A stretch of DNA of 32,000 bases from Pseudodesulfovibrio piezophilus C1TLV30 (GCF_000341895.1 NC_020409.1:1-32000), one strand, 5' to 3'. Shown: positions 2,534 to 18,360, counted from the first letter of the stretch. The notes: generated by a model from the sequence alone, not told the origin. A program made the numbers and translations.

Positions 2534-3569
2534 TGAAAATAGCCAATGCCATAAGGAGGAGGAGGATCATGATGCCAAAACGCATCGCCAGAGCTTTCCA
2601 GCGGTCGCTCAAAGGGCGCCTGAAAATAAGCTCCAAGCCAAAGAACAGAATGTGCCCACCATCAAGTACAGGGATAGGCAACAAATTGATAATTGCCAGG
2701 TTGATGGAGATGATGGCAACCATATTGAGAAGGGCATATATGCCGGTCTGGGCGCTGTCATGAACCATTTGAGCCAGCATGATTGGCCCCCCGATGCTTT
2801 CAACGGGAATCAGTCGTTCGATGATGGAGAGGAAACCTTTGATCACAACGTGAGCCATATTCCATGTGTGCTCCAGAGCAAGACCGGCTCCGGTTCCATC
2901 TATTGGGTGGTATTCGACCTTGCCTCCTTGACTGATGCCAACCATGGGGACAGTGACTTCCTCGCCAAAAAGATTCTTAACGGTATTGACTTTGGGAGTG
3001 ACGGAAAGAGTGACTGTTTGACCGTCCCGTTCAACAATAAATTCGAGACTTTTTTCTCCGCTTTCACGGATTGTAGTGACCATTTTTGTCCACGAATTGA
3101 TGGAGGTTCCATCAATTGAGAGTACCCGGTCATCCAGTCGGAATCCGGCCGAAGCCGCAGGAGTGTCGGCCATTATTCCGCCAACGGTAGGAAGAATGAT
3201 TCCCTGCCCTTGAGCGAGTGCAAGAAACCAGAAGATTATAAAAGCGAGAAGAAAATTGAAAAAAGGACCAGCAGCGACAACGCACATGCGTTGCCATGCC
3301 GGGCGGCTGGAAAAAAGTTCCTCGTCAGAAAATCCATCTTCCTCTTCTTCACCATCTTCCCCTGCCAGTTGAACATATCCCCCTAATGGAATGAGGGACA
3401 GTTTATATTCGGTTTTTCCCGAGACGGTCCCGGCCAGTCTTGGACCAAACCCAAGGGAGAAAGCCTTGACGCCCATTCCAAAGAGACGTGCTACGGCAAA
3501 GTGGCCGAGCTCGTGAAAGAAAATAAGCCCTCCGAGGGCCACTACAATAGCGATGGCACTTATCAGCAT
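2508..3569 (-). CDS. rseP: RIP zinc metalloprotease RseP (site-2 protease) with PDZ domain
   Basis: HELGHF zinc motif near the N-terminus, a central PDZ-like segment, the C-terminal NLLPIPVLDGGH motif, and multiple hydrophobic helices. Confidence 0.9.
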   Translation of the reverse strand: MLISAIAIVVALGGLIFFHELGHFAVARLFGMGVKAFSLGFGPRLAGTVSGKTEYKLSLIPLGGYVQLAGEDGEEEEDGFSDEELFSSRPAWQRMCVVAAGPFFNFLLAFIIFWFLALAQGQGIILPTVGGIMADTPAASAGFRLDDRVLSIDGTSINSWTKMVTTIRESGEKSLEFIVERDGQTVTLSVTPKVNTVKNLFGEEVTVPMVGISQGGKVEYHPIDGTGAGLALEHTWNMAHVVIKGFLSIIERLIPVESIGGPIMLAQMVHDSAQTGIYALLNMVAIISINLAIINLLPIPVLDGGHILFFGLELIFRRPLSDRWKALAMRFGIMILLLLMALAIFNDFRRLLS

Positions 3570-3640
3570 ATGTTCCTCATTGTGTCGCAGGGTTATTCAA
3601 AGTGCGACGATACTCATTATAAGCATTCATTATCATTTGG

Positions 3641-4855
3641 CTAGAGAGAAGACTCTGCTTCTTCCCGAGTGATGCGGTCAAGCTCTAAAATAGCAGACGG
3701 AGTGTCAACTTTCACAGCTTGATGAGAGGTCAGTGCCTGTTCGATCATTTGGGGGATGTCAAGAAAGTGTATTTTTTCATTGAGAAAAGCAGCTACAGCA
3801 ACTTCATTGACAGCATTGAGAACTATCGGGTGGCTTTGTCCGGCGGCAAAAGCCTCGCGGGCGAGGCGTAAGCAGGGGAAAGCTTCTTCATCAGGGTCTT
3901 CAAATGTCAGCGTCCCAACTTGGGCGAGGTTGAGTTGTGGGACATCGACCTCAACACGTCGGGGAAAGCAGAGACAGTGAGCAATGGGAATCTGCATATC
4001 CGGATTTCCCAAGTGAGCGAGTTGTGACCCATCCATGTATTCGACCAGCGAATGGATGATTGATTGAGCATGCACAACGACATCAATCTTTTCAACCGGT
4101 ACTCCATAGAGATGGCAGGCCTCTATGACTTCAAGCCCTTTATTCATCAACGTCGCAGAATCAATAGATATCTTGGCACCCATGTCCCAATTGGGATGAG
4201 CAAGAGCCTGGTCTCGTGTCACCGTTTGCAAGAAGTTTTTATTCCTGCCTCTGAAGGGACCGCCAGAGGCAGTCAGTATCAGGCGCTTCAAGTCAGTGTT
4301 TTCGTCCTGGCTACTTTGGTGTCCGACAAGTCCTTGAAAGAGGGCATTATGCTCTGAATCAACAGGAAATATCGTAGCACCGGATGCATGGCATTCCTTA
4401 CGGATCACATGCCCGCCAAGGACCAGGGATTCCTTGTTTGCAAGGCCAATCATTTTTCCTGCCTGAGCGGCTGCCAAGGTGGGAATGAATCCAGCTGCGC
4501 CAACGATGCTGGAAAGAACGAGGTCGACACTGTTCAGCGCGGCAAGCGTCGCATATCCTTCTGGTCCGACATGTATTTCCGGCGTATATCCGCACGGGAG
4601 ATAACTGATGAAATCCTGTCTGACCTGTTCATTCAGAACACCGACATGCGGAGGGCGAAACGTTACACATAACTGTGCCAGCCGTTTGGCATTAGCGCCG
4701 CCCGCAAGAGCTGTCACCGTAAATAGATCCGGGTGTTTGCGGATAACCTTGAGTGCACTTGTCCCTATGGAGCCTGTGGCTCCTAGTATGCAGATTGAGC
4801 GAGGAAAATCAGGTTGAGGGACAGAAAGCGGCCAGGGAGAAATATACGTTTGCAC
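3641..4855 (-). CDS. dxr: 1-deoxy-D-xylulose 5-phosphate reductoisomerase
   Basis: ILGATGSIGTSAL NADPH-binding motif, LANKESLV, and SEHNALFQ motifs. Confidence 0.95.
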   Translation of the reverse strand: MQTYISPWPLSVPQPDFPRSICILGATGSIGTSALKVIRKHPDLFTVTALAGGANAKRLAQLCVTFRPPHVGVLNEQVRQDFISYLPCGYTPEIHVGPEGYATLAALNSVDLVLSSIVGAAGFIPTLAAAQAGKMIGLANKESLVLGGHVIRKECHASGATIFPVDSEHNALFQGLVGHQSSQDENTDLKRLILTASGGPFRGRNKNFLQTVTRDQALAHPNWDMGAKISIDSATLMNKGLEVIEACHLYGVPVEKIDVVVHAQSIIHSLVEYMDGSQLAHLGNPDMQIPIAHCLCFPRRVEVDVPQLNLAQVGTLTFEDPDEEAFPCLRLAREAFAAGQSHPIVLNAVNEVAVAAFLNEKIHFLDIPQMIEQALTSHQAVKVDTPSAILELDRITREEAESSL

Positions 4856-4868
4856 AGTGTGTCCGTGG

Positions 4869-5672
4869 TTATTGAAAATAAGGGTGAACCATGCGCATCA
4901 GACCATATGCGGGAACAACCAGAAGCATGGAGTCCACGCGATCCAGCAATCCTCCATGACCGGGCAGTATGGAGCCGGAATCTTTGACCGCAAGGGAGCG
5001 CTTCAGAGCGGATTCGAAGAAGTCACCCATTTGAGCGGCAATATTGAGAATAATACCAAGGAATATCCATTGCCAAAGGGATGCATGCCCAAAAATTAAG
5101 CCATAGACGGATATCAACACAGTGCATGCAGTCATCCCCCCGATACTGCCTGCCCAGGATTTTTTCGGGCTGACTTTGGGCCAGATCTTTTTCTTGCCCC
5201 ACAGGGACCCGCTATAAAACGCTGCAGTATCCGAAATGGCCGCCGCTCCAATGACAAGAGCGCATTCCCATCTGTTAAAATGCAAAAAAAAGTGAAAATT
5301 GACAGGTATATAAAGAAGTCCTGTCAAAAAAATCATAGCCTGAACAAATGATGCATTCAGGTCTGTGCTGTAGCGAAAGAGAAAAATGAAGGCCGCTGTC
5401 CAGAAGGCACTCATGAAAACCAGGGCAGGGTAGAGAAGATTACCCGTCGAAAAAGCTGCCAGTAAAAGAAAAGTATAAATGGCCCCTAGACTTTTGACAG
5501 TCTTGATACCCTGGTGTGACTTGAAAAGATTGTAAAACTCCCAGAGAGTAAAGGAGCAGAAAAGTGCAAGGACAGTAAAAAATACCCAACCTTGGAAGAC
5601 GAGAGCAAGAATCGGGATAAGCGCGAGGCCTATCGCTGTAACAATTCTTTTTTTATGAAGAGATATGTCCAT
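4869..5672 (-). CDS. cdsA: Phosphatidate cytidylyltransferase
   Basis: Polytopic membrane protein with the C-terminal signature SALKRSLAVKDSGSILPGHGGLLDRVDS. Confidence 0.9.
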   Translation of the reverse strand: MDISLHKKRIVTAIGLALIPILALVFQGWVFFTVLALFCSFTLWEFYNLFKSHQGIKTVKSLGAIYTFLLLAAFSTGNLLYPALVFMSAFWTAAFIFLFRYSTDLNASFVQAMIFLTGLLYIPVNFHFFLHFNRWECALVIGAAAISDTAAFYSGSLWGKKKIWPKVSPKKSWAGSIGGMTACTVLISVYGLIFGHASLWQWIFLGIILNIAAQMGDFFESALKRSLAVKDSGSILPGHGGLLDRVDSMLLVVPAYGLMRMVHPYFQ

Positions 5673-5778
5673 ATGTAATATTCAGCGGGTGCTTTAAGTG
5701 AGCGCTTTATGCGCGAGTGTTCAGTATGTACGCTATTTGGAAACCAGGGGCAACATGCGTTGCGCTCTTCATATTGGC

Positions 5779-6564
5779 TTAGGTCAATTGATCGCTCGTT
5801 TTGCCGAATCTACGTTGCCGGTGACCAAGTTCAACAAGAGCTTTATCAAGTTCATCAGATGAAAAATCCGGCCAGTAGATATCTGTAAAGTACAATTCAG
5901 AATAGGCGCATTGGAAAAGAAGGTAATTGGAGAGACGAAGTTCTCCACTTGTTCTGATGATTAGATCCGGGTCGGGTTGACCTGCTGTCCAGAGTTCATT
6001 TGAAAAAATTTCCTCTGTTATTTCAGAGGATTCAAGTCCTTTTTCTAGCAGTGCTCTGGTGGCACGAAGAATTTCGTCCCGGCCCGAATAGTTCAGGGCA
6101 AGGTTGAGAGTCATTGTCGAGCATTCCTGTGTCTGGCGCATGACATGTTTGAGGACCTGACGAACCGTCATGGGCATGTCATTGATATCGCCGAGAACAT
6201 TGAGTTTGACCCCTTGTTCTTTCAGACTCTTTTCTTCCCGTTTGAGAAATGCGGTCAGCAACTCAAAGAGAGTTTTTACTTCAGCCTTGGGACGTGACCA
6301 GTTTTCTTTTGAAAAAGTGTAAAGAGTCAGGTGTTTAATTCCTAACTCATGGCAGCGCGATACAACGGTGCGAGCTGTCTCGGTTCCGGCTTTATGGCCT
6401 TCAGTTCGAGGAAGCCCGCGCTGTTTCGCCCACCGCCCATTGCCATCCATAATGATGGCAATGTGGGCAGGTATAGAGGTAGTGTCCAAGAATGGTCCCT
6501 TAGATTTCGAGAATTTCTTTTTCCTTGGCAACAAAGGCTTGATCGCTTTCCTTGACATAGTCAT
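5779..6564 (-). CDS. uppS: Undecaprenyl diphosphate synthase (isoprenyl transferase)
   Basis: [13 protein letters not shown] and [24 protein letters not shown] motifs. The ATG at 6564 overlaps frr by 65 nt. An alternative TTG at 6489, preceded by AAGGGA just after the frr stop, would remove the overlap. Confidence 0.93.
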
Positions 6565-7054
6565 CGGTCAGCTTCTGCACGTCGGCTTCGCCTTTTTTCT
6601 TCTCGTCTTCGCTGATGTCCTTCTCTTTCTCCATGGCCTTGAGCGAATCGTTCAAATCGCGGCGAACATTGCGAATGGCTATTTTGCATTCTTCAGTGTA
6701 TTTTTTGGCTATTTTGACCAAATCTTTTCTGCGTTCCTCTGTGAGAGGTGGAATGCCGATACGGATGATCTTGCCATCGTTGACAGGGGTCAGACCGAGA
6801 TCGGAATTCATGATTGCCTTTTCCACGGCTCCGAATGCGCCTTTATCCCATGGTTGGATGCTGACAGTCTTAGAGTCAGGGATGGAGACTGAGGCCAACT
6901 GGCTTATGGGGGTAGGGGTGCCGTAGTAGTCCACGACAATGTTGTCCACCAGGGATGTCGTAGCACGCCCTGTGCGCAATTTTCCAAAATCCTTGTCCAA
7001 GGCTGTCAAAGCCCCGGTCATGCGTTTTTTTCCATCTTCGAGCAGAGATTGCAT
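6500..7054 (-). CDS. frr: Ribosome recycling factor
   Basis: 184 aa. Typical RRF sequence, e.g. [32 protein letters not shown] and [18 protein letters not shown]. Confidence 0.97.
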
Positions 7055-7055
7055 A

Positions 7056-7784
7056 TTAGTCTCCTCCTTGAACTGTCGTTCCTATGGGTTCTCCGTTGGC
7101 TGCCTTGCGGATGTTACCTTCTTCATAGAGATTGAAAACAATGATCGGCAGGTCGTTGTCTCGTGCCATGGAAATGGCTGTGGAGTCCATAACTCCGAGG
7201 CGTTTTTCCAATGTTTCTATGTAGGAAACTGTATCGTACTTGACAGCATCGGCGTATTTGGCAGGATCTTTATCGTATATACCGTCCACTTTGGTTGCCT
7301 TGAAGATTGCATCGCATTTGAGTTCCAATGCACGAAGGGCGGCTGCAGAGTCGGTGGTAAAATACGGGTTGCCTGTTCCGGCCGCGCAAATGACTACGCG
7401 GCCTTTATCCATGTGGCGTTGTGCCCGGCGGCGAATATATGGTTCAGCCACCTCTGCCATGGATATAGCTGTCATGACGCGGGTGTCGCACCCATGTTTT
7501 TCCAGCGCATCCTGAACAGCGAGAGCATTCATGACGGTTGCCAACATCCCCATGTAGTCACCTTGTGCCCGGTCCATGCCTTTGGCACTGGCTGCCATGC
7601 CTCGAAAGATATTTCCACCACCGATGACGAGGGCGAGTTGTAGCCCTGTGGCCGCGACTTCGGCGATCTCCCTGGCAAACTGGTTAATGGCTTCCGGTTC
7701 TATGCCAAAGCTTTGTTCACCGGCAAGAGCTTCGCCGCTGAGCTTGAGCAATACCCGGTTATACCGCGCTTTGTTCATTACCAC
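7056..7784 (-). CDS. pyrH: UMP kinase
   Basis: Contains [20 protein letters not shown] and the [11 protein letters not shown] motifs. Confidence 0.97.
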
Positions 7785-7905
7785 CTCGTGTATAGTTTCT
7801 CATGATTCCATAAACTCGCCATCAGGCGATAGCATGTTTCAGGCTGTCGATAAAGAGCGGATTGCCGGGGCAATCGCACTTTTCTCAACAGCCTGTATGC
7901 TTACC

Positions 7906-7935
7906 AAAAAAAACGGGCCTTGCGGCCCGCTTTTT
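7906..7935 (-). terminator. Intrinsic terminator immediately after tsf
   Basis: GC stem cgggcc/ggcccg with loop ttgc. It is flanked by A8 on plus (T8 on minus) and T5, and starts 2 nt after the tsf stop codon. Confidence 0.6.
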
Positions 7936-7937
7936 GT

Positions 7938-8765
7938 TTAGTCTTCGCTTTCTTCTTCCTTGGCGTCTTCCCCTAGGGCAAGTCGCACAAAGCCTGCGAC
8001 CTCGGCTTTGCCGAGGATGTCCTTAACGGACTTTTTATCTTCCTTGATGTAGGACTGATTGATCAGGCATACCTCAGAGTAGAATTTGTTGAGTCGACCG
8101 ATGACGATCTTTTCAGCGATGTTCTCGGGCTTCCCTTCATCCATGGCCTGTTTCATGTACAGGGCTTTTTCCTTCTCCAGAATGTCCTGAGGCAGTTCTG
8201 CAGAAGTAATACAGGATGGGTTCATGGCCGCAACGTGCATGGCGATGTCTTTAGCCATCTCAACATCATCAGAGCCAGTCACTTCGACAATGGCACCGAG
8301 TTTGTTGTTGGAGTGGATGTAGACACCGAGTACGCCTTCGGTTGTGAACTTGGCAAAACGACCAACGCCCATGTTCTCGCCCAACTTGGCGATGAGGTCG
8401 GTTACGTCAGCTATCTCTGCGGGCAGATCGGCAGCGGAGCCAGTAGTGACATCCAGTTCTGCTATTTTCTCGGAGAGAGCATTTGCATAGGCGACAAAAT
8501 CGTCCCCTTTTGCAACGAAGTCGGTTTCACACAGCAATTCAGCAATAACGGCAGTCTTGCCATCTTCACTGATGTAAGGGGTGACGAGTCCTTCAGATGT
8601 GGCGCGTCCGGCTTTTTTGGCAGCCTTGGACAGGCCCTTCTCGCGAAGGTACATGATTGCTTTTTCCTCATCGCCACCGGATTCTACCAGGGCTTTTTTG
8701 CAATCCATCATGCCTGCGCCGGTCTTCTCGCGCAGTTCCTTAACCTGAGATGCAGTGATAGCCAT
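7938..8765 (-). CDS. tsf: Elongation factor Ts
   Basis: N-terminal UBA-like ITASQVKELREKTGAGMMDCKKAL. Sits in the classic rpsB-tsf gene order. Confidence 0.97.
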   Translation of the reverse strand: MAITASQVKELREKTGAGMMDCKKALVESGGDEEKAIMYLREKGLSKAAKKAGRATSEGLVTPYISEDGKTAVIAELLCETDFVAKGDDFVAYANALSEKIAELDVTTGSAADLPAEIADVTDLIAKLGENMGVGRFAKFTTEGVLGVYIHSNNKLGAIVEVTGSDDVEMAKDIAMHVAAMNPSCITSAELPQDILEKEKALYMKQAMDEGKPENIAEKIVIGRLNKFYSEVCLINQSYIKEDKKSVKDILGKAEVAGFVRLALGEDAKEEESED

Positions 8766-8767
8766 TC

Positions 8768-9562
8768 TTACTTCTCCTGAGCAGGGGCTTCGGCAGGAGC
8801 CTGAGCCTTTTCTTCGGTTTTAGGGGCTTCAGCTTTGGCGGCTTTGGCTTCCTCGGCAGCTTTGGCTGCGAAATCTTTTTGCATTGCGCTTCCCTCGATG
8901 CAGGCATCGGCCATGTGAGTGGCAAACAGCTTGATGGCGCGGATTGCATCGTCATTGCCGGGGATGATGTAGTCTACCATGTCGGGATCGCAATTGGAGT
9001 CAACAACGGCGACAACAGGGATACCCAATTTGCGGCATTCCTGAATGGCGATGTGTTCACGCTTGGGATCAATGACAAAAGCAGCCTTCGGAGCATCGTG
9101 CATGTCCTTGATTCCGCCCAGAGCAAGGTTCAGTTTCTTGACCTCGCGGTTCATGCCCACTGCTTCCTTTTTGGTGTAGCGGGAAATGGAACCATCTTCG
9201 AACATCTGCTCGAGATTCTTGAGGCGGTCGATGGAGCGTTTGATGGTCTGGAAGTTTGTCAGTGTGCCACCCATCCAGCGGTGAGTGACGAAGAACATGC
9301 CAGCGCGTTCCGCTTCCTGTGTGACAGCTTCCTGAGCTTGACGCTTGGTGCCGATGAACAGGACTTTGCCGCCTTTGGCGACGGTGTTGACGATGAAGTC
9401 ATGGGCGGTCGCAAACATCTTGACGGTCTGCTGCAGATCCATGATGTGAATACCGTTGCGTGCGCCGAAGATGTAGGGGCGCATTTTGGGGTTCCAACGG
9501 CGGGTCTGGTGGCCGAAGTGGACGCCGGTTTCCAGCATCTGCTTCATAGTAACGTAAGCCAT
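8768..9562 (-). CDS. rpsB: 30S ribosomal protein S2 (with Ala/Lys/Glu-rich C-terminal tail)
   Basis: Contains [22 protein letters not shown] and the rest of the conserved S2 core. Low-complexity C-terminal extension [33 protein letters not shown]. Confidence 0.98.
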
Positions 9563-9734
9563 GATAATCTCCTGGGTTTTTCGTCCATCCCGCAGTCCAT
9601 TTAGGAGTCCGTGCCATCACGGACCACCCGGAGTTATGGGCGGGATGTGTGAATTTGAAGTCGGGGGTAATTAGCCCATTATCATATAGATGACAAGTGA
9701 TAAAGTGGGCTCTTTGAAAAGTTGTTCAGAGAGT

Positions 9735-11339
9735 TCATTTCATTATTTCTTTGATACGGCTGAGATGTTCCTGAAAAAAGTAATAAAATTTTGTATCATT
9801 TCCCAGAATCTGACCGAGTTGTGGCTGTGTCAATTTTTTCATGAATCCGCCACCTGTGTTTTGATGATGAATGCATTTGACCAGTCCACAATAGCGAACT
9901 TCTCCACCGTTGATCCTTAATTTGATGTCATGTGCAATGTCGTCAACTTGTGATGGCGAATATCGGAGATCAAAGTCCGGACCATCCGGCATATGAGCCA
10001 TGCGAAGAAGGTGACAGCACCCCATTACATGATCTGTGGAGCGGCAGAAGTCATATTGGCCGATATCGGTCAGGGCGATGGAAGTGGGATCTGTGAGTTT
10101 GAGCAAGCCTGGTTCTGCCAAGGAAAAGCTTCGGTAGAGGTACTGAATCATCCTTTGGTTGCTTCCGAAAATGACTTTGCTCCCGACCACAGAAGCAGTG
10201 GGGTGCTTTTGCATTTCTGTCAGGTAATGACCGAGCCAATCCGAGGGTAATTCCACATCGTCATCAAGGTAGGCCACAAATTCACTTTGTCGGACTTCAG
10301 GGAGGCTTCCAAGCCAGTTCCTCGCAGCAGGAGCACCCACATTCACGGGCAGAACCAAAGTTTGAAAGTCGTTGTCAGGAAAGAGAGAGCGGGCTGATTC
10401 GGTCACAGCCTCACTGTTGTCGGTGCACCCGTTCAAAAGAATGCGAATCTTCGCCGGACCAAGCGTTGTTTTTGCCAGACTCTCCAAAGTCATTTTGAGG
10501 TCATCAGCTTTATTCCATGAATAAATGCAGATCGTTACATTGCTTGTATCGAGAAGTCCCATATCCGGAAGAGTTGGTCCTTTCAATTCGCTGAGTCTGT
10601 ACCTAACCGGACCTTGAGCAGGGTCCTGGGTGAGTGACTTCTCATAGAGATCAATCGCTTGAAGTGTCTCTCCTGTTTGAGCAAACATTTCAGCCGCACG
10701 GTTAAGGAGCACCTCTGAAGTTCTGTTCGATTGAATGAGGCTGGGCCATAATCTCAGGGCGTCTTCAGCCATACCGAGTTCTGAATAGTGAAGAAACAGG
10801 CGTTCATCCCATTGTGGCTGAGCAAAAGGTGGGATGACGATTTTGCTTAACCATGGGCCTGGTTCATTCCCTTGGTAGTAATCGAGCAGCAGGCGTTGCG
10901 AGGCTGCGACGATGTGTCCGGGCCTTTGGGTGAGAATGTCTTCCAATATATTGATTCGACGCTGCAAAGCAGACGGACTCGACATGACTCGGCGCATATC
11001 CATGAGTGAGGGGGCATCCTCAAATCGTGCAATTTTCTTGGCTCGCTCCAGAAGGAGCGGGTCTCCGGAAAGTTGAGCCGCAAGATTTAATGTCATGTGA
11101 TTGAATGGGCTGAGTGCAATGGATTTGCGCAGAAGACGCGTAATTGTATCAACTGTTTTCGGATGGGAATTGGCTGTCTGGTCATTTAGTATGCGTGCCA
11201 AAAAGACGGAGCACATCTCATGGTCAAGATAGAGATTGTCTTCCACCTTTCCCAGGACTTTGAAAACAGCGTCAAGATTAATGCGATCCAGTTCTTCGAA
11301 ACGATCAGTCGGGGTATAGATGTCGTTCATTCTCTCCAT
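9735..11339 (-). CDS. TPR-like N-terminal domain fused to a family 2 glycosyltransferase
   Basis: The C-terminal half has the GT2 layout: ICIYSWNKADDLKMTLESL, LLNGCTDNSEAV and the DxD-type YLDDDVELP. The N-terminal ~260 aa is helical-repeat/TPR-like (AIDLYEKSLTQDPAQGPV). The ATG at 11330 (MNDIY) is an alternative start. Confidence 0.7.
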   Translation of the reverse strand: MERMNDIYTPTDRFEELDRINLDAVFKVLGKVEDNLYLDHEMCSVFLARILNDQTANSHPKTVDTITRLLRKSIALSPFNHMTLNLAAQLSGDPLLLERAKKIARFEDAPSLMDMRRVMSSPSALQRRINILEDILTQRPGHIVAASQRLLLDYYQGNEPGPWLSKIVIPPFAQPQWDERLFLHYSELGMAEDALRLWPSLIQSNRTSEVLLNRAAEMFAQTGETLQAIDLYEKSLTQDPAQGPVRYRLSELKGPTLPDMGLLDTSNVTICIYSWNKADDLKMTLESLAKTTLGPAKIRILLNGCTDNSEAVTESARSLFPDNDFQTLVLPVNVGAPAARNWLGSLPEVRQSEFVAYLDDDVELPSDWLGHYLTEMQKHPTASVVGSKVIFGSNQRMIQYLYRSFSLAEPGLLKLTDPTSIALTDIGQYDFCRSTDHVMGCCHLLRMAHMPDGPDFDLRYSPSQVDDIAHDIKLRINGGEVRYCGLVKCIHHQNTGGGFMKKLTQPQLGQILGNDTKFYYFFQEHLSRIKEIMK

Positions 11340-11385
11340 ATCCTTGGGTAGTTTCGGGCGAGTTTATCTGATTTGAACGGGAAGT

Positions 11386-12516
11386 TCATTGGCTTTGATC
11401 ATCAAAGGACTGTCCCATCAGTCGCTTGGCCAATCCGCCAAAATCTTTTGGGGCATAACCGAATACTTCATTCCAGACATCCGTGGATTCCATGCAGAAA
11501 TAGAGTTGTTTGTCCATACCATGCGCACGGAGTCGATTGACGATGAAGGAGAATTGCTTCACTCGCAGGGGGCGAAGGAGGCGGGCCTTGCCATCGAGTC
11601 CTGGAATGAACTCATCATAGATGTATGTCGTTTTGGGGAAATTGTCAGCAATGATAGGCGTGAGTTGTGGCATGCATCGGAATGAGCCGATTGACATGTA
11701 GGCGATCTGGTGTGGCTTAACATAATCAAAAATCAGGTCGATGGTTTCCGCATAGCCTTCTTCCCAGCCTGGATAATGAATGACCGGATCGAAGTGAAGA
11801 CAGACTCGAAAACCAGCTTCCGCACATGTCCTGGCAGCCGAGAGTCGTTCCCGCAAAGTGGAGACATCAAATTCTTCATGTTCATTGATGAAGGGAGCAT
11901 TCATGGACCATGCCGGAAGAATTCGGTCTGTTCGTTTGGCTGCATCCATCCATGAAAGATCAACGACTTTTGACTTGAGTTCAAGGGCTACATTGCTGTA
12001 GTTATTCAGAAATTCGACAAGATCATGACTGTATCCGGTCAGGTGTTCCAGAGCGAGAGAATCTGTGAACTCTCCAGTCCCGACCCGGAAGCGTTGTGCC
12101 TGATTGGCAAAACCCTCAGCAAGTTCACTGAACAAGTCACCCTGGTTCGCCCATATCTTGAGGACTTGGTCCTGGAAATAGGCCTGGAGGATACAGTAGG
12201 AACAGGCCATCGGACAGTTCTCTCCAATGTGGATGATACGATATCCACAGCAGTGGTAGGCTTTGGTACCAGGGCAGAATCGGAGGAATTTCCCTTTGTA
12301 TTCTTTAAGATAGAGTGCCTGTTCGGAACCTTTGCTGAATTCAATACGGTCCATGTCCGGGGAGACGACGGTCCACGGGAGGTTTGCTTTATCCGTACCC
12401 GCAAGGCGCCTCTGTACTCTCCTTGCTATCAGTGAATCCTGCATGGATTCATCAACGAATATGTGGGAGATGCGACGCAGGTGATTGGGGAGCTGTTTAG
12501 TCATGGCTGGTTCCAA
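11386..12516 (-). CDS. Spore photoproduct lyase family radical SAM protein (SplB-like)
   Basis: CX3CX2C cluster in NCPMACSYCILQAYF. It is preceded by KGKFLRFCPGTKAYHCCGY, matching the SPL-family layout rather than a generic rSAM core. The track start at 12516 is TTG; an ATG at 12504 (MTKQL) overlaps the upstream gene stop. Confidence 0.75.
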   Translation of the reverse strand: MEPAMTKQLPNHLRRISHIFVDESMQDSLIARRVQRRLAGTDKANLPWTVVSPDMDRIEFSKGSEQALYLKEYKGKFLRFCPGTKAYHCCGYRIIHIGENCPMACSYCILQAYFQDQVLKIWANQGDLFSELAEGFANQAQRFRVGTGEFTDSLALEHLTGYSHDLVEFLNNYSNVALELKSKVVDLSWMDAAKRTDRILPAWSMNAPFINEHEEFDVSTLRERLSAARTCAEAGFRVCLHFDPVIHYPGWEEGYAETIDLIFDYVKPHQIAYMSIGSFRCMPQLTPIIADNFPKTTYIYDEFIPGLDGKARLLRPLRVKQFSFIVNRLRAHGMDKQLYFCMESTDVWNEVFGYAPKDFGGLAKRLMGQSFDDQSQ

Positions 12517-13483
12517 TCGTCCAGAGAATTTCCCACTCAGGGCGTGTAACCATGTCTTCCAAATCGTGGAGCGCTGTTTTTAGCTGCTGGGAATTCTTGA
12601 TTCGAAGAGTCAGCTCTGCTTCATTTGTTTCGAAATTATCTGGTTGTTCTAGCTGCCATTTTGTTCCGGCAACCAATTTTGCAGATGTTTCGGCATAGGA
12701 CTTTTGGCGAGATGTCAACTCTGGGTAGCGGGCTTTTTTTGCCGTTGAGACAAGGCGGGCAATGGTGTCCTTGGGAGAAAGAGTCAGGCCCATCATTGTG
12801 TCCATATGAGTTGTATTCATAATGTTCGCTATGGAATGAGCAGTCATTTTAGAGGTTTCGAAAAGCCACGTCAGCACGTTGACGGCGTTAGAGCGTGACC
12901 ATGAGTAGTTTGTGAAGAGCTGTTCTACGGCGTGTCTGTCAGAGTCATTCATTTTGGCAATGATGGTTCCCGCAGCTAAGGGAATGCGCCCTGCGGTCAG
13001 GTGAGACTGCCAGTTTTCAGGTAATTCCAGCCATGTCATGAAGAGCTTGGCGTCTTTGCTTTTCGGCTTGATACCAAGACGGTGGAGAACTGTCTGCCGG
13101 ATCTCCTTCTCTGAGGTGAATGTACGGAAATACCGAAGTGCTTTGAGTTTCATTCCATCATCTTGGAGACGGTGGGTATTCTCAATCAGATAGAGTAGCC
13201 CCTTCTCCATGTCAGTCAGTCTCTCGACCAACCTGACCAGAACGGGCTTTCCCAGTTCCTTTAGAATCATGACTCTGGCGAAGCCGGATATGAGTTCCAA
13301 GCCTGTTTCTGTCTCCTGAACAAGGATTGGGGTGGTTTGACCGACTTCCTCAAGGGAAGTCTTCAATGAAGTGTTGGTCTGTTCGGACCAGAACAGGTGA
13401 GAGCCTGTGGTCTGGATAGCTTGAGCGGAAGCTGTAATGATTTCGCTTGAAAGCTGCAAAGTGTGCTCCTGGCATTTCTTCAA
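12497..13483 (-). CDS. ParB/Srx-fold N-terminal domain protein (ParB-like, degenerate GERR box)
   Basis: SLEEVGQTTPILVQETETGLELISGFARVMILKELG aligns to the ParB box SI...G.lqPi.V....g.yelIaGeRR. TWLELPENWQSHLTAGRIPLAAGTIIAKM resembles the ParB LLkLPeevq..l..gkls.ghAraL helix region. The only in-frame starts are TTG: 13483, or 13459, which has AGGAG 6 nt upstream. Confidence 0.6.
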   Translation of the reverse strand: MKKCQEHTLQLSSEIITASAQAIQTTGSHLFWSEQTNTSLKTSLEEVGQTTPILVQETETGLELISGFARVMILKELGKPVLVRLVERLTDMEKGLLYLIENTHRLQDDGMKLKALRYFRTFTSEKEIRQTVLHRLGIKPKSKDAKLFMTWLELPENWQSHLTAGRIPLAAGTIIAKMNDSDRHAVEQLFTNYSWSRSNAVNVLTWLFETSKMTAHSIANIMNTTHMDTMMGLTLSPKDTIARLVSTAKKARYPELTSRQKSYAETSAKLVAGTKWQLEQPDNFETNEAELTLRIKNSQQLKTALHDLEDMVTRPEWEILWTIGTSHD

Positions 13484-13600
13484 TGGTTATAACGTAAGGT
13501 TCTATAAAATAAGATGATTTTGTTTGGTCAGTAAGGGTGAACACACAAAGTCATTGTTATTTCAATGTGATGAGAAGCCGTGTTTCTCAGCTTACCCCTC

Positions 13601-13630
13601 TTGACATTTTCGCGTTGCTCTTCCTATAGG
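13601..13630 (+). promoter_or_regulatory. Candidate sigma70-type promoter for the EF-G paralogue
   Basis: TTGACA (13601-13606), an 18-nt spacer, then TATAGG (13625-13630), about 95 nt upstream of the ATG. Confidence 0.3.
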
Positions 13631-13724
13631 ACTAAACCTGTCAAAAACCAAGTGTCCTAGACCAAACGGGGTCGGAGGTGCCCCAAATTAGAGTAAAAAA
13701 CCAATAAATATACTGGAGTAGAGA

Positions 13725-15785
13725 ATGCCTGACTTGAACACCCAGAGAACATATTCACTTGTCGGTCATGGCGGCAGCGGCAAGACCTCTGTCGCCGAGA
13801 TGCTTCTTTTTAACGCTGGCGTCGTCAATCGCCTCGGCAAAGTCGAAGATGGGAATACCATTCTCGATTATGAGCCTGAGGAGATCAAGCGGCGCGGTTC
13901 CATTCAGCCTGGTTTTGCTCATTACAAATGGAAAAAAAACGATCATTTTCTCATTGATACTCCGGGGGATTCCAACTTTGCCGGAGATTTATCCTATAGC
14001 TTGACCGCAACTGACGGTGTGGTGCTTGTCCTTGATGCTGTCGATGGAGTCAAGCCGCTGACCAGAAAAATCTGGTCTCAAGTTCAGGCTCGGGCATTAC
14101 CAGCCATGATTGTCATCAATAAAATGGATCGTGATCGAGCTGATTTTGATGCTGCTTTTACTGGTATTTCTGATGCATTGGGTGCGCGGCCGGTCCTTCT
14201 TTATTATCCCATTGGTGTCAGGGAAGACTTTAAGGGTGTGGTTGATATGTTGTCAGGTCAAGCTTTTCTGTTTAGTGCGGATGGTGCCGTTACGGAAGCT
14301 GATATTCCTGCCGAGATCGCGGATGAAGTGGAAAGTCTCCGAGAGACCATGATTGAAAATATCGCGGAAAGCGATGAAGACCTCATGGAAAAATATTTCG
14401 AGGAGGGGGAATTGGGACCTGAAGATAGCATAAAAGGTCTCAAAGCCGGAGTTGCATCTGGTGAACTCGTTCCTGTCGTGGTGTCTTCTGCTTTGAATAA
14501 TCAAGGCGGACAGATGATCCTTGAGACTGTACAGAAACTCTTGCCTGGTCCATTGGACCATGCTCCCTGGGTTGGCGAAGACGGGGAACGTCCGAGTTCT
14601 CCAGACGAACCTCTGGCATGTTTTGTCTTCAAAACACAAGCTGACCCTTTTGCCGGACAGCTTACACTGGCTCGTGTGTTATCAGGACAAATCAAGCCGG
14701 ATTCCCATTTGTTGAACGCCTCGAACGGTGAAAAAGAGCGCGTGGGGCAATTGTTGCTGACAAGTGGCAAGGAGCAAATCCCGTCGAAAGAGGCCATGGG
14801 ACCTGGGGCTATCGTCACCCTTGCCAAATTGAAGAATACGGCTACGGGAGATACTCTGGTAGAGAAAGACGTATTCAAATTGATCAAGCCTGAACGCGCA
14901 CCACAGCTTATTACCTTTGCTTTGGCTCCTGCTGAAAAGGGTGATGAAGATAAAGTATATGCAGCTGTCGCCAAACTGCTTGATGAGGATATCACGTTGA
15001 CCCTGTCTCGTGATGAAGAGTCCGGTGATATTCTTCTGTCCGGTATGGGGCAAAATCATATTGAAATTTCAGTAGAAAAAGCCAGAAGGCGCTATAAGGC
15101 TGATATTGTCCTGAAGACTCCCAAGGTCCCGTACCGCGAAACATTCAAAACCGGAGCCAGGGAAGTGCAGGGGCGCCATAAGAAACAGTCCGGCGGCCGA
15201 GGGCAATTTGGTGATTGCTTTATCCATGTGGCCCCTCAAGGGTCGGGTGAGGGATATGAGTTCGTGGATAAGATTGTCGGAGGATCCATTCCTCGGCAGT
15301 TCATTCCTGCCGTAGATAAGGGAATACAGGAATCTGCCGCTCGAGGCGTGCTTGCTGGGTATCCGGTTATCGACTTTCAGGTCACACTGTATGATGGCAG
15401 CTATCACAATGTCGATTCATCAGAAATGGCTTTCAAGATTGCAGGTTCCCTTGCCTTCAAGAAGGCGGCAGAAAAGGCTCATATGGCCCTTCTTGAACCG
15501 ATCATGCTGGTGACTGTGGCGGTGCCGGACTCCTTTATGGGGGATGTTATTGGTGACCTTTCTTCACGCAGGGGCAAGGTGCTGGGGTCTGATTCCCAGG
15601 CCGGCCTGACAGAGGTAAAGGCCCATGTTCCCATGGCTGAAATGCTGAAATATGCTCCGGATCTCAATTCCATGACTGGAGGGCAGGGAACATTCTTCAT
15701 GGAATTTGCTTCTTATGAAGAATGCCCTTCACAGGAAGCAGAAAAGGTTATCGCGGCACATTCCAAATCGGCTGAAAGCGATTAA
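13725..15785 (+). CDS. Elongation factor G paralogue (divergent GTPase motifs)
   Basis: Full five-domain EF-G length (686 aa). G1 is GHGGSGKT, G3 is DTPGDSNF, G4 is NKMD. Domain IV has GSYHNVDSSEMAFKIAG. It stands alone rather than in an rpsL-rpsG-fusA-tuf context. Confidence 0.88.
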   Translation: MPDLNTQRTYSLVGHGGSGKTSVAEMLLFNAGVVNRLGKVEDGNTILDYEPEEIKRRGSIQPGFAHYKWKKNDHFLIDTPGDSNFAGDLSYSLTATDGVVLVLDAVDGVKPLTRKIWSQVQARALPAMIVINKMDRDRADFDAAFTGISDALGARPVLLYYPIGVREDFKGVVDMLSGQAFLFSADGAVTEADIPAEIADEVESLRETMIENIAESDEDLMEKYFEEGELGPEDSIKGLKAGVASGELVPVVVSSALNNQGGQMILETVQKLLPGPLDHAPWVGEDGERPSSPDEPLACFVFKTQADPFAGQLTLARVLSGQIKPDSHLLNASNGEKERVGQLLLTSGKEQIPSKEAMGPGAIVTLAKLKNTATGDTLVEKDVFKLIKPERAPQLITFALAPAEKGDEDKVYAAVAKLLDEDITLTLSRDEESGDILLSGMGQNHIEISVEKARRRYKADIVLKTPKVPYRETFKTGAREVQGRHKKQSGGRGQFGDCFIHVAPQGSGEGYEFVDKIVGGSIPRQFIPAVDKGIQESAARGVLAGYPVIDFQVTLYDGSYHNVDSSEMAFKIAGSLAFKKAAEKAHMALLEPIMLVTVAVPDSFMGDVIGDLSSRRGKVLGSDSQAGLTEVKAHVPMAEMLKYAPDLNSMTGGQGTFFMEFASYEECPSQEAEKVIAAHSKSAESD

Positions 15786-16638: not shown

Positions 16639-18294
16639 ATGTCTTCGACATCCCTCAGTCTTTATCCCTTGGGCGGGCTTGGTGAAATCGGTATGAACTG
16701 TATGGCCTATGTGACGGATCGGTCCATGGCCCTTGTCGATTGTGGGCTCATGTTTCCGGAGGATTATCATTTTGGTGTGGATGTGGTCATTCCATGCTTT
16801 GACATGATTCTTGAAAACAAGCAGAAATTGCACGGTATCGTGCTCACTCACGGGCATGAAGATCACATTGGTGCCTTGCCCTGGCTTTTACAAAATGTCG
16901 ATGTTCCTGTGTATGGGAGTGAATTCACCCTTGGCTTGGTTGAGAGCAAATTGCGTGAACATGGTTTGGACCGTTGGGCCGACCTTCGTCCTGTCCGCCC
17001 GTACGACAGGGTGCTCATTGGTGATTTTAAATTTAATTTTTTCCCTGTCTGCCACTCAATTATTGAAGGTTTCGGTCTTGGTATAGAAACCCCTGTCGGA
17101 CGAGTTGTTCATACAGGAGATTTCAAGATTGATCGGAATCCTCTTGGTGGGCATGCCACTGATCTTGGTGCATTCCGTAAATTCTCCGAATCGGGTGTGA
17201 CTGTGATGCTCTCGGATTCGACCAATGTGGAGAGGGAAGGGTTTGCCCTGACAGAACGGGAAATCAAGGTATCTCTCCGCGAGATTTTCTCTACGGCGAA
17301 AGGTCGTATTCTTGTTTCTCTTTTTTCGAGTCATATTCAACGAATGCAGGAAGTCATTGATTTGGCTGATGCCGAAGGGCGTAAGGTCGCAGTTTCAGGG
17401 CGTAGCCTTTTTCGAAATATAGACTTGGCGAGAGAGCAGGGGCATCTGAAAATACCCAAAGGGATTTTGGTGGACCTTGACCAACTCGATGAATACGGGG
17501 ATTCAGAGCTTGTCCTGCTCATTACTGGGTCGCAGGGCGAACCCTTGGCTGCTCTTTCGCGGATGGCTATGGGGGAACACAGGCAATTGAGCGTCAAACC
17601 GGATGATTTGTATGTCTTGTCATCCCGTTTCATTCCGGGAAATGTCAAAGCCATAACCAAGGTCATCAACAACCTTTACCGCTTGGGTGCCGAGGTCCTG
17701 TATGAAAAGATGCATGGTATTCATGCTTCGGGACATGCTCATGCGGGAGAATTGACATTGATGCTTGAGACTGTTCGTCCAAAATATTTTATCCCGGTGC
17801 ATGGGGAATACCGTCATTTGGTGAAGCATCAAAGGCTTGCTATCGGATGTGGTGTGGAAGAAGACTGTGCCTTGGTTGTGGAAAACGGACAACCCATTGT
17901 TTTTCATGCCGATGGGAGTATGGAATTTGGGAAGCTTTTTTCAGCTGAAAAGATTCTCGTGGATGGGAAAGGGGTTGGTGACGTCGGACAATCTGTCCTC
18001 AAGGAGCGGCAACTGCTGGCCGGAGAGGGGATGGTGATTGTAGTCATTGTGGTCGATGAAGCCTCTGGTGAGATCTCCATGGGACCGGATATTATATCAA
18101 AGGGTTTTGTTTTCGAGCAAAAATATCGTCATGTTCTGGATGATGCCAAATGTATCATCCTGGATGTTCATGAGAATATCACGCCGGGCGAAACCGAAAA
18201 ACTCAAGGAACGAATTCGTTCTGCGCTGAGGCGATTTTTCCGCAAGGTTCTAGGGAGAGACCCTGTCGTGGTTCCTCTTGTGATCTCAATGTAA
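16639..18294 (+). CDS. rnj: Ribonuclease J (metallo-beta-lactamase/beta-CASP)
   Basis: LTHGHEDHIGALP zinc motif, later conserved HASGHA and HGEYRH motifs, 551 aa. Confidence 0.9.
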   Translation: MSSTSLSLYPLGGLGEIGMNCMAYVTDRSMALVDCGLMFPEDYHFGVDVVIPCFDMILENKQKLHGIVLTHGHEDHIGALPWLLQNVDVPVYGSEFTLGLVESKLREHGLDRWADLRPVRPYDRVLIGDFKFNFFPVCHSIIEGFGLGIETPVGRVVHTGDFKIDRNPLGGHATDLGAFRKFSESGVTVMLSDSTNVEREGFALTEREIKVSLREIFSTAKGRILVSLFSSHIQRMQEVIDLADAEGRKVAVSGRSLFRNIDLAREQGHLKIPKGILVDLDQLDEYGDSELVLLITGSQGEPLAALSRMAMGEHRQLSVKPDDLYVLSSRFIPGNVKAITKVINNLYRLGAEVLYEKMHGIHASGHAHAGELTLMLETVRPKYFIPVHGEYRHLVKHQRLAIGCGVEEDCALVVENGQPIVFHADGSMEFGKLFSAEKILVDGKGVGDVGQSVLKERQLLAGEGMVIVVIVVDEASGEISMGPDIISKGFVFEQKYRHVLDDAKCIILDVHENITPGETEKLKERIRSALRRFFRKVLGRDPVVVPLVISM

Positions 18295-18303
18295 TGATCT
18301 CAG

Positions 18304-18347
18304 AAAAAAAGGCCCGGTTTCATGAAAATGAAACCGGGCCTTTTTTT
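18304..18347. terminator. Bidirectional intrinsic terminator between rnj and the convergent YbjQ-like gene
   Basis: 13-bp perfect stem ggcccggtttcat/atgaaaccgggcc with loop gaaa, flanked by A7 and T7. Confidence 0.88.
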
Positions 18348-18360
18348 CTGTTTTCATGTG

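Follow-up and report, generated by a model that had tools for sequence, protein, structure and literature searches.

A conserved gene pair for a ParB/Noc-like protein and a spore photoproduct lyase-like radical SAM enzyme in Pseudodesulfovibrio piezophilus and other anaerobes: a possible DNA-directed radical system

The first 32,000 nt of the chromosome of Pseudodesulfovibrio piezophilus C1TLV30 (NC_020409.1:1-32000; hereafter the window, i.e. the whole stretch of DNA that was analyzed) carry a minus-strand unit (9735-13483) that encodes a ParB-like protein, a radical S-adenosylmethionine (SAM) enzyme related to spore photoproduct lyase (SPL) and a GT2 glycosyltransferase. The host is a deep-sea, non-sporulating sulfate reducer. 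The present analysis revealed that the pairing of the first two genes is conserved across lineages and is not due to chance, and that the known SPL and ParB folds are joined by a coupling module that has not been described before. To our knowledge, SPL is the only characterized member of its radical SAM family and the only radical SAM enzyme known to repair DNA directly. We tentatively read the two proteins as the subunits of one DNA-directed radical enzyme acting on something other than the spore photoproduct (SP).

Results

Conservation of the gene pair

Direct reading of the sequence confirmed the layout given in the initial annotation, i.e. three minus-strand genes, an octamer, ATGACTAA (12504-12497), in which the radical SAM ATG (12504-12502) overlaps the ParB-like TAA (12499-12497), and a gap of 46 nt between the radical SAM TGA (11388-11386) and the GT2 ATG (11339-11337). 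The comparison covered 80 Desulfovibrionales genomes in which the enzyme has an orthologue (55-82% identity), the neighbouring genes being searched with a hidden Markov model (HMM) of the ParB-like protein. In about 68 of these genomes, the ParB-like gene immediately precedes the enzyme gene on the same strand; an insertion separates the two genes in four, the ParB-like gene is absent from the locus in six, and two contigs are too short. The stop/start spacings in this order are mostly -8, -4 or -1 nt. A set of 80 metagenome loci has enzymes that share 43-70% identity with a distant representative. Of its 67 informative loci, 39 have the ParB-like gene immediately upstream, and stop and start overlap in 17 of 35 pairs, an estimate that the nearest-start rule makes somewhat optimistic. 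Overall, the pair is adjacent in 116 of 169 loci belonging to Desulfovibrionales, other Thermodesulfobacteriota and Candidatus (Ca.) Wallbacteria, and it occurs in 18 of the 22 clusters obtained by single linkage at 60% identity. It is present with an 8-nt overlap in Ca. Wallbacteria, which belong to a different phylum. All the lineages that host the pair or the enzyme family are anaerobes.

Translational coupling and a probable physical partnership had been deduced from the octamer. Taken alone, an 8-nt overlap is ordinary for operons, but the conserved pairing and the fusions described below exceed chance. The pairing persists far outside the lineage of P. piezophilus, and random adjacency is not borne out.

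Fusions and an undescribed coupling module

The ParB-like protein contains a helical module (positions ~187-255 of the ParB-like HMM, i.e. residues ~186-262 of the window protein) that is also found at the N-terminus of about 15 further enzyme representatives (E 1e-15 to 1e-5) and is characterized by the motifs S.N.Q.E.L...EIA and R.P.L. The same module is the linker in PNP_UDP_1-radical SAM fusions (P0316 and P0363), and a triple PNP_UDP_1-module-enzyme fusion is present on more than 20 contigs of Elusimicrobia. Pfam and PDB sequence searches with the module and with the C-terminus of the ParB-like protein retrieved nothing significant; a duplication of the helix-turn-helix (HTH) domain was considered as its origin and rejected, hhalign giving no signal. 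Since it is fused to the enzyme in many lineages, has no Pfam or PDB match and is not a detectable HTH duplicate, the module is an undescribed domain dedicated to this enzyme family.

Furthermore, a single metagenomic sequence, P0249 (705 residues), combines a full-length ParB-like protein and the enzyme (HMM E 2.4e-46; BLASTP E 8e-10), with some 30 low-complexity residues between them, a linker unlike the product of a frameshift across a short overlap. The module fusions are more robust than P0249 and argue most strongly for the two window proteins acting together as a physical unit. Because of the fusions, chance adjacency is essentially excluded.

An SPL-like enzyme with a probably rebuilt substrate pocket

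The enzyme (372 residues, 100% identical to P0001) belongs to the SPL family of Pfam (PF20903; 67.5 bits versus a cut-off of 27). It fails the SPL equivalog of NCBIfam, TIGR04070 (63.6 bits versus 400), and scores 31.8 bits against TIGR03886 (cut-off 437.55). The only relatives found in the PDB by sequence are chains of Geobacillus thermodenitrificans SPL (E 1e-13; 1e-42 with the family profile). Its AlphaFold (AF2) model (pLDDT 93.6) was matched by Foldseek to SPL 4fhf (E 1e-19, TM 0.75/0.82, 355 columns), the next radical SAM structure being at 1.6e-4; judging by this model, the enzyme has the full-length SPL fold. The family is large, with 396 clusters at 50% identity in a full-library search (E < 1e-30).

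Many of the residues to which a role has been assigned in SPL (PMC3467042, PMC3742179, PMC5368176) have counterparts in the enzyme. C97, C101 and C104 align to SPL C90, C94 and C97, and Y103, which is 100% conserved, to SPL Tyr96. The SAM ligands are retained: SPL D143, K174 and S195 correspond to D148, K179 and S200 (invariant or 98-100% conserved) and R273 to R276. In a profile alignment to 4rh0 (the C140A/S76C mutant and best-scoring PDB sequence), Cys77, 98% conserved in the family, falls on residue 76, i.e. the position of the fourth cysteine whose role is known in Clostridium SPL (PMC3467042). Therefore, the SPL-specific layout claimed by the initial annotation holds insofar as the protein is an SPL-family member and not a generic CX3CX2C one, but FCPGT is not the Bacillus layout and its cysteine aligns with the Clostridium-type fourth one.

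Other positions are replaced. SPL Cys140 corresponds to an invariant Glu145, and SPL Tyr98 to Ile105 (Ile in 70% of the members; the family has Ile, Phe or Val and the consensus is never Tyr). Arg193, Glu268 and Tyr339 recognize the thymine dimer in SPL (PMC3467042); Tyr339 could not be aligned to the enzyme, so that the comparison concerns Arg193, replaced by Ala or Ser, and Glu268, replaced by Gly in 100% of the members. The family displays new invariants, namely Cys86 in an insertion of 7-8 residues, H237, D239, Y335, C337 and E339. D304, K306, R308 and R314, located in or after a predicted beta-hairpin (DSSP E299-301 and E307-309), are invariant in alignment A4, and the place of this hairpin agrees with that of the DNA-lesion hairpin of SPL (PMC3467042). 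Altogether, the residue pattern indicates that the radical-relay core of a lyase-type enzyme is retained and that the substrate pocket is rebuilt. As it lacks Cys140, Tyr98 and the thymine-recognition residues, the enzyme does not appear to be a canonical SP lyase.

Beyond the CX3CX2C motif, the enzyme has three near-invariant cysteines (C77, C85/C86 and C337), to which C227 and C235 are added in Desulfovibrionales (alignments A1, A3 and A4). They may ligate a second Fe-S cluster or a metal, which would compete with a role of Cys77 as hydrogen donor.

A partner related to ParB and Noc

The partner is 100% identical to P0121 (320 residues), named "ParB/RepB/Spo0J family partition protein" in P. 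piezophilus. The open reading frame reported at 12497-13483 does exist; its real start is probably the TTG at 13459, which gives 320 residues, rather than 13483, because this length agrees with P0121 and with all the 320-residue orthologues. As the protein alone is below the Pfam ParB_N cut-off (14.6 versus 26.3 bits), the ParB nature initially attributed to it rests on structure and on the family profile. Its AF2 model (pLDDT 91.3) was matched by Foldseek to ParB, Noc, KorB and Spo0J (E 2e-6, about 200 columns). The family profile retrieved Noc and ParB chains from the PDB (E 2.5e-20 to 1e-15) over positions 9-197, i.e. the N-domain and the HTH, and gave a much weaker match to the ParB/Srx-fold kinase SbnI (E 2e-3). 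Furthermore, a distant orthologue from locus L082 is above the ParB_N cut-off (34.4 versus 26.3 bits) and reaches 72.8 bits with the Noc model; PF02195 is assigned to many of the orthologues in databases. Profile and model both argue for a true ParB/Noc homologue with N-domain and HTH.

The N-domain motifs of the window protein are GQTTPILV (box I-like), SGFAR (box II GxxR; the Gly59 codon is 13285-13283) and IENTHR (box III-like). In the family (alignment A5), G59 and R62 are invariant, N94 and R97 nearly invariant, and the consensus reads G..NPP.L for box I, IV.G[FYW]RR..AL for box II (compare GERRxRA), with an aromatic residue in place of the catalytic Glu, and [DE]NL..R.LN..EK for box III (compare ENLQR). 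From these motifs, it is plausible that the family binds a nucleotide without hydrolyzing it efficiently. The A5 profile aligns to Noc/ParB chains through the HTH region, up to profile position ~197. The C-terminus (DSSP of the AF2 model: E269-271, E282-284, H290-303 and H307-314) includes an invariant E277 and a nearly invariant F276. No parA gene is adjacent to the ParB-like gene, and isoelectric points, used as a proxy for DNA binding, were not decisive.

Glycosyltransferases and nucleosidases associated with the enzyme family

The glycosyltransferase of the window had been described as a TPR-glycosyltransferase that could add a sugar-transfer step. Its GT2 domain is clear (Glycos_transf_2, 47.7 bits versus 23.3, residues 269-404), but all TPR models are sub-threshold (best TPR_14, 16.8 bits versus 23.5). 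It is found 3′ of the pair in only 4 of the 80 Desulfovibrionales loci, all from close relatives (L001, L002, L006 and L009), and in equally close Pseudodesulfovibrio genomes the enzyme gene is directly followed by rpsB, without any GT2 gene between them. This TPR-GT2 is a lineage-specific occupant of the slot, possibly co-transcribed with the pair, and not a core part of the system.

A radical-SAM-associated family of small GT2 proteins (~280 residues) was defined here by an HMM built from 17 loci. The window GT2 was considered as a member and rejected, since it scores 24 bits over HMM positions 3-112 only, i.e. the generic N-terminal 110 residues; the GT2 of locus L171 is a true member (357.7 bits over positions 3-258). 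No member was found within 6 kb of the pair in any of the 80 Desulfovibrionales loci. In the metagenome loci, the slot upstream of the enzyme gene is occupied by a small GT2 gene only (n = 11), by both genes (n = 3) or by a ParB-like gene only (n = 36), and GT2 > ParB-like > enzyme operons occur in distant Thermodesulfobacteriota.

The enzyme family also displays a second architecture (L171, 1822-4491; L170, 4417-6314; L166, 6001-8007), in which a nucleosidase-like protein replaces the ParB N-domain and the HTH. L171 carries PNP_UDP_1 > small GT2 > module-enzyme, all overlapping, and L170 carries PNP_UDP_1 > module-enzyme fusion. These PNP_UDP_1 partners resemble HpnG and MTA nucleosidases; the best NCBIfam match, HpnG, is sub-threshold (61.6 versus 187 bits). 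The Elusimicrobia neighbourhood (a Ddl-like gene and an aldo-keto reductase gene) revealed no coherent pathway.

Features of the locus and neighbouring genes

The features of the unit are listed in Table 1.

Table 1. Features of the minus-strand unit in the window (domain and module boundaries are approximate).
Feature	Position	Strand	Basis
GT2 glycosyltransferase gene, 534 aa, with helical N-terminal half	9735..11339	-	Glycos_transf_2
Spacer between radical SAM and GT2 genes, 46 nt	11340..11385	-	No terminator-like site
SPL-family radical SAM enzyme gene, 372 aa	11386..12504	-	Pfam SPL, fold match
Predicted beta-hairpin FIPGLDGKARL, aa 299-309	11578..11610	-	DSSP E299-301, E307-309
CX3CX2C cluster motif C97-P-M-A-C101-S-Y103-C104	12193..12216	-	Invariant in A1, A3, A4
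Cys77 codon (C of CPGT)	12274..12276	-	= Ser76 of G. thermodenitrificans SPL = Clostridium-type fourth cysteine
Radical SAM start / ParB-like stop overlap ATGACTAA, 8 nt	12497..12504	-	Read from sequence
ParB/Noc-like partner gene, 320 aa (probable start)	12497..13459; open reading frame extends to alternative TTG at 13483	-	Identity, structure, profile
C-terminal beta-beta-alpha-alpha region, ~aa 263-320	12500..12673	-	DSSP of AF2 model
Radical-SAM-associated helical module, ~aa 186-262, with SWSRSN...LTWLFE, LSPKD, ARYPEL	12674..12904	-	Broad ParB-like HMM
Helical region homologous to ParB/Noc HTH DNA-binding domain, ~aa 106-185	12905..13144	-	Profile A5, Foldseek
ParB/Srx-type N-terminal domain, ~aa 20-105	13145..13402	-	Alignment A5, PDB alignments

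The first gene of the window is dnaA (43-1473, +; Bac_DnaA 144.6 bits, with N- and C-terminal DnaA domains) and the GC skew is positive over the 32 kb; therefore, the window lies directly to one side of oriC, and the pair is about 11 kb from dnaA. In relatives, the locus tags (DND132_0014 and SYK_00130) rank the gene about 13th or 14th on the chromosome, which points to a similar place near the origin. The promoter and terminator scan was uninformative on operon limits, the site counts being close to shuffled expectation and the radical SAM-GT2 gap having no terminator. The GT2 gene is followed by rpsB-tsf-pyrH-frr and then by more housekeeping genes. An Rfam scan of 9400-13900 identified no riboswitch and only a weak match to the t44 RNA, an rpsB leader element, at 9576-9669 (-) (21.8 bits versus a gathering score of 44, E 0.36). 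The match lies exactly within the 172 nt that separate the GT2 stop codon from the start of rpsB, which suggests a regulated leader belonging to rpsB itself and not simply read-through from the GT2 gene.

The unit ends a minus-strand run (1742-13459) composed of a TsaD-family gene (likely tsaB), rseP (M50 peptidase), dxr, cdsA, uppS, frr, pyrH, tsf, rpsB, and the GT2, enzyme and ParB-like genes. Here the G-rich strand is the plus strand; should this also be the leading strand, the run would be transcribed head-on to replication, including its highly expressed translation genes. Farther away, just after an RNase J gene (16639-18294), a 30-nt inverted repeat (18294-18357) that is 90% complementary around a 4-nt loop, with A/T runs flanking it on either side, has the appearance of a strong terminator acting in both directions.

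On the 5′ side, the ParB-like gene is divergent from a gene encoding an EF-G paralogue (EF-G2; 13725-15785, +). Such a gene is the divergent neighbour in most Desulfovibrionales loci, and EF-G2 is near the enzyme gene in 11 metagenome loci with another arrangement (enzyme > SNase > EF-G2 <). The top conserved intergenic 8-mers of Desulfovibrionales, CTTGACAA (38/65 loci) and CCTATAGG (32/65 loci), have as counterpart in the window TTGACA, an 18-nt spacer and TATAGG (13601-13630, +). They were considered as a binding site of the ParB-like protein and rejected, being a promoter-like site of the divergent EF-G2 gene.

In about 14 metagenome loci (among them L087, L088, L100, L102, L105, L110, L122, L126, L128, L136, L141, L144 and L165), the enzyme gene is followed on the same strand by a gene for an SNase homologue (96 bits) with an N-terminal signal-like hydrophobic segment; in other groups, it is followed by SSB (~10 loci) or by an unknown gene and DciA. 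These DNA-related followers may only reflect the synteny of the origin region. Likewise, purC is directly upstream of the ParB-like/enzyme unit in eight loci (L088, L089, L095, L097, L102, L105, L133 and L164) and purN directly upstream of the enzyme gene alone in three (L037, L043 and L045); together with the PNP_UDP_1 partners, this could reflect a link with purine nucleosides, or synteny. No other biosynthetic genes recur in the enzyme neighbourhoods. In Ca. Wallbacteria (L168/L169, 3856-4818, -, and 756-1904, -), the divergent neighbour encodes a fusion of a TudS-like desulfidase (DUF523) and YbgA (DUF1722; 85.5 bits to the E. coli YbgA model), dnaN being 3 kb away. The photolyase gene of E. 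coli shares its transcript with ybgA.

A mobile or phage origin was rejected: a scan of viral contigs retrieved no relatives, and tblastn against plasmids and phages retrieved distant SPL-family genes only. The PADLOC defence models gave no match for the enzyme and the GT2, and a weak MTase_II match only (17.8 bits) for the ParB-like domain. The locus is chromosomal, with a housekeeping-like synteny.

Discussion

A possible DNA-directed radical enzyme

The reading that we favour, as a possibility that still falls short of being probable, is that the ParB/Noc-like protein and the SPL-like enzyme are the two subunits of one DNA-directed radical enzyme acting on a lesion or a base other than SP. 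The ParB-like subunit would bind DNA, possibly as an NTP-gated, hydrolysis-poor clamp, and would hold the catalytic subunit through its module. The enzyme would flip a damaged or modified pyrimidine-type residue into its active site, where the 5′-deoxyadenosyl radical would abstract a hydrogen atom; the resulting substrate radical would rearrange or fragment and be quenched by Cys77, with Tyr103 as relay and the invariant E145, H237, D239, C86, C337 and E339 as new active-site candidates. The outcome would be repair or base modification. Because R193, E268, Tyr98 and Cys140 are all replaced, we infer that the substrate is not the classical SP.

In favour of DNA, the only characterized relative of the enzyme is a DNA lyase, and the full SPL fold is retained together with its macromolecule-binding extras. 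The closeness of the partner to true ParB/Noc proteins, including the HTH, and the origin-proximal location of the pair favour the same substrate. An SPL-family gene is UV-induced in Curtobacterium, a non-sporulating actinobacterium (PMC12029717). A more ambitious proposal, which we consider rather unlikely, is that a ParB-type nucleotide-gated clamp directs a radical SAM enzyme to the chromosomal DNA of strict anaerobes or makes it processive there, the product being a glycosylated base formed without oxygen where the dedicated GT2 is added.

Several observations weigh against a DNA-directed enzyme. Some lineages carry the enzyme without an adjacent ParB-like gene, and the thymine contacts of SPL are lost family-wide. 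The window ParB-like protein is a degenerate member of its family, retaining a single arginine in its box II (SGFAR), and the HTH of the family lacks the conserved ParB recognition motif even if its hydrophobic pattern is retained (A5). No parS site was found within 3 mismatches in the window, which contains no repeated palindrome either, and the intergenic region upstream of the ParB-like gene has no inverted repeat. In 14 of the 80 metagenome loci, a small GT2 gene is directly upstream of the enzyme gene, often overlapping it, and elsewhere PNP_UDP_1 nucleosidase-like proteins are fused or adjacent to the enzyme family. Neither partner is expected for a repair lyase, and both weaken a pure DNA-repair reading. 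Finally, DNA-binding domains fused to enzymes can be autoregulators, as in PutA and SbnI, and the fusions are therefore no proof of DNA targeting.

Alternative explanations

The GT2 and nucleosidase partners fit, at least as naturally as DNA, a biosynthesis or salvage pathway for nucleosides or glycoconjugates, in which the SPL-like enzyme would act on a small or lipid-linked substrate. The 5′-deoxyadenosyl radical would add to a double bond (compare HpnH and MqnE), PNP_UDP_1 would remove adenine (compare HpnG and MqnB) and the small GT2 would add a sugar (compare HpnI), the ParB-like protein being an NTP-using accessory enzyme and/or an autoregulator docking on the enzyme (compare SbnI and PutA). 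We consider this pathway a serious contender, if on balance a doubtful one. It would account for the 11 small-GT2 loci without a ParB-like gene, the GT2 > ParB-like > enzyme operons, the PNP_UDP_1 operons of L171 and L170 and the triple fusions of Elusimicrobia, as well as for the loss of the base-recognition residues of SPL together with a new polar active-site set; the housekeeping synteny of a chromosomal locus devoid of phage or plasmid copies and of PADLOC matches for the enzyme suits it too, and a quenching Cys would be equally useful after radical addition. However, the partner is far closer to ParB/Noc (E 2.5e-20) than to SbnI (E 2e-3), the enzyme retains the N-terminal domain and the basic hairpin that are features of a macromolecule-type enzyme, and neither a nucleosidase nor a small GT2 is found near the pair in the window or in the 80 Desulfovibrionales loci. 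Moreover, PNP_UDP_1 may merely clear inhibitory 5′-deoxyadenosine, which fits any radical SAM enzyme, and no other biosynthetic genes are recurrent nearby. The same GT2 could instead glycosylate a DNA or RNA base on which the enzyme has generated a radical (e.g. on the thymine methyl), with the ParB-like protein targeting the chromosome: this hypermodification would follow the reverse logic of the last step of SPL and amount to an oxygen-independent equivalent of base-J-type modification. No other reading places a ParB/Noc-like binder, a base-flipping enzyme with the SPL fold and a dedicated GT2 on one substrate, the hosts are all anaerobes, where O2-dependent hydroxylases cannot work, GT2-family enzymes that glycosylate nucleic-acid bases are known, and ParB-like accessory proteins (DndB and DpdB) exist in DNA-modification systems. 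It is nevertheless improbable, since its chemistry is without precedent, the genes are neither mobile nor linked to restriction or defence, the GT2 and ParB-like genes are mostly alternatives in the upstream slot (11 / 3 both / 36) and the window GT2 lies outside the dedicated family.

Two simpler explanations have far less in their favour. The enzyme could be a genuine SP lyase that repairs 5-thyminyl-5,6-dihydrothymine in the dehydrated or A-form DNA of a non-sporulator, in agreement with its Pfam SPL membership, its full SPL fold, the retention of Tyr96 and of a Cys at the Ser76 position as in Clostridium SPL, and the UV induction in Curtobacterium (PMC12029717); this is very improbable in view of the score against TIGR04070 (63.6 versus 400), the replacement of Tyr98, Cys140, R193 and E268 in the whole family, the 7-8-residue insertion with its invariant Cys86 and the non-sporulating deep-sea host. 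Lastly, the ParB-like protein could be an ordinary partition or nucleoid-occlusion paralogue without any partnership, its adjacency being inherited synteny like that of the EF-G2, purC, SSB and RNase E/G genes, which are also syntenic across lineages, in an origin-proximal region. This explanation deserves hardly any credit: it is already contradicted by the full fusion P0249 and by the module fusions in many clusters, and has to face an adjacency that holds for 18 of 22 divergent clusters and extends to another phylum, the frequent stop/start overlaps and a family-specific C-terminal module, without Pfam or PDB match, that is fused to the same enzyme family elsewhere.

Significance

The initial annotation knew of no characterized system with this pairing, and no description of it turned up when the full-text literature was searched for the pairing and the locus tags DND132_0013 to DND132_0015. 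As late as 2025, a paper presents the occurrence of an SPL-family gene in a non-spore-former as without precedent. In databases, the enzyme is named "SPL family radical SAM protein" and its partner "ParB/RepB/Spo0J family partition protein" or "hypothetical"; NCBIfam has no curated model specific to either protein, and Pfam has none for the module. This work delineates a large enzyme clade with what appears to be the radical-relay core of SPL, a rebuilt pocket and, unlike SPL, obligate partners. Should the partner be a DNA clamp, the CTPase fold of ParB would acquire a further task, the delivery of an enzyme, and anaerobes a new route of DNA repair or modification; with a clamp-targeted radical enzyme, a ParB clamp would for the first time be seen to carry an enzyme, and SPL would no longer be the sole case of DNA-directed radical SAM chemistry. 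If, on the other hand, the function is set by the GT2 and nucleosidase partners, the SPL fold would have been put to use in a new pathway for nucleosides or glycoconjugates that is widespread among sulfate reducers and candidate phyla.

Comparison with known systems

The closest known enzyme is SplB from Bacillus, Geobacillus and Clostridium (4FHC/4FHD/4RH0; PF20903), with which the window enzyme shares the whole predicted fold, the CX3CX2C motif, D143/K174/S195/R273, Tyr96 and a Cys at the Ser76 position. It differs from SplB by a low identity (~16-25%), by the replacement of Cys140 by Glu and of Tyr98 by Ile/Phe/Val, by the loss of R193 and E268, by the Cys86 insertion, H237, D239, C337 and E339, by the ParB-like partner and by its non-sporulating anaerobic hosts. 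TIGR03886, the "spore photoproduct lyase family protein", is likewise SPL-related, uncharacterized and found in non-spore-formers, but the window enzyme belongs to a separate clade (31.8 versus 437.55 bits).

The partner resembles the CTP-dependent clamps ParB, Spo0J, Noc and KorB by its ParB/Srx N-domain followed by an HTH, its recognizable boxes I-III and its origin-proximal gene. It lacks the catalytic Glu of GERR and the conserved HTH recognition motif, has neither parS in the window nor an adjacent parA, and is distinguished by its extra helical module, its distinct C-terminus and its coupling or fusion to the enzyme. ParB/Srx-fold proteins encoded beside DNA-altering enzymes are already known, i.e. 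DndB in phosphorothioation and DpdB in 7-deazaguanine DNA modification, and these systems are mobile, defence-linked islands with different enzymes. Here, by contrast, the partner is like chromosomal ParB/Noc, the enzyme is a lyase-type radical SAM protein and the locus is syntenic housekeeping DNA.

HpnH, HpnG and HpnI build the hopanoid side chain, and MqnE and MqnB belong to the futalosine pathway, both following a radical-adenosylation logic. The trio of radical SAM enzyme, PNP_UDP_1 and GT2 encoded in one operon, as in L171, recalls the Hpn pathway (and MqnE/MqnB, without the GT2). However, the enzyme has the SPL fold and is not of the HpnH or MqnE type, the HpnG match is 61.6 bits versus 187, and there is no squalene-hopene cyclase or mqn gene nearby. 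In the clade of the window, the ParB-like protein stands in the place of the nucleosidase.

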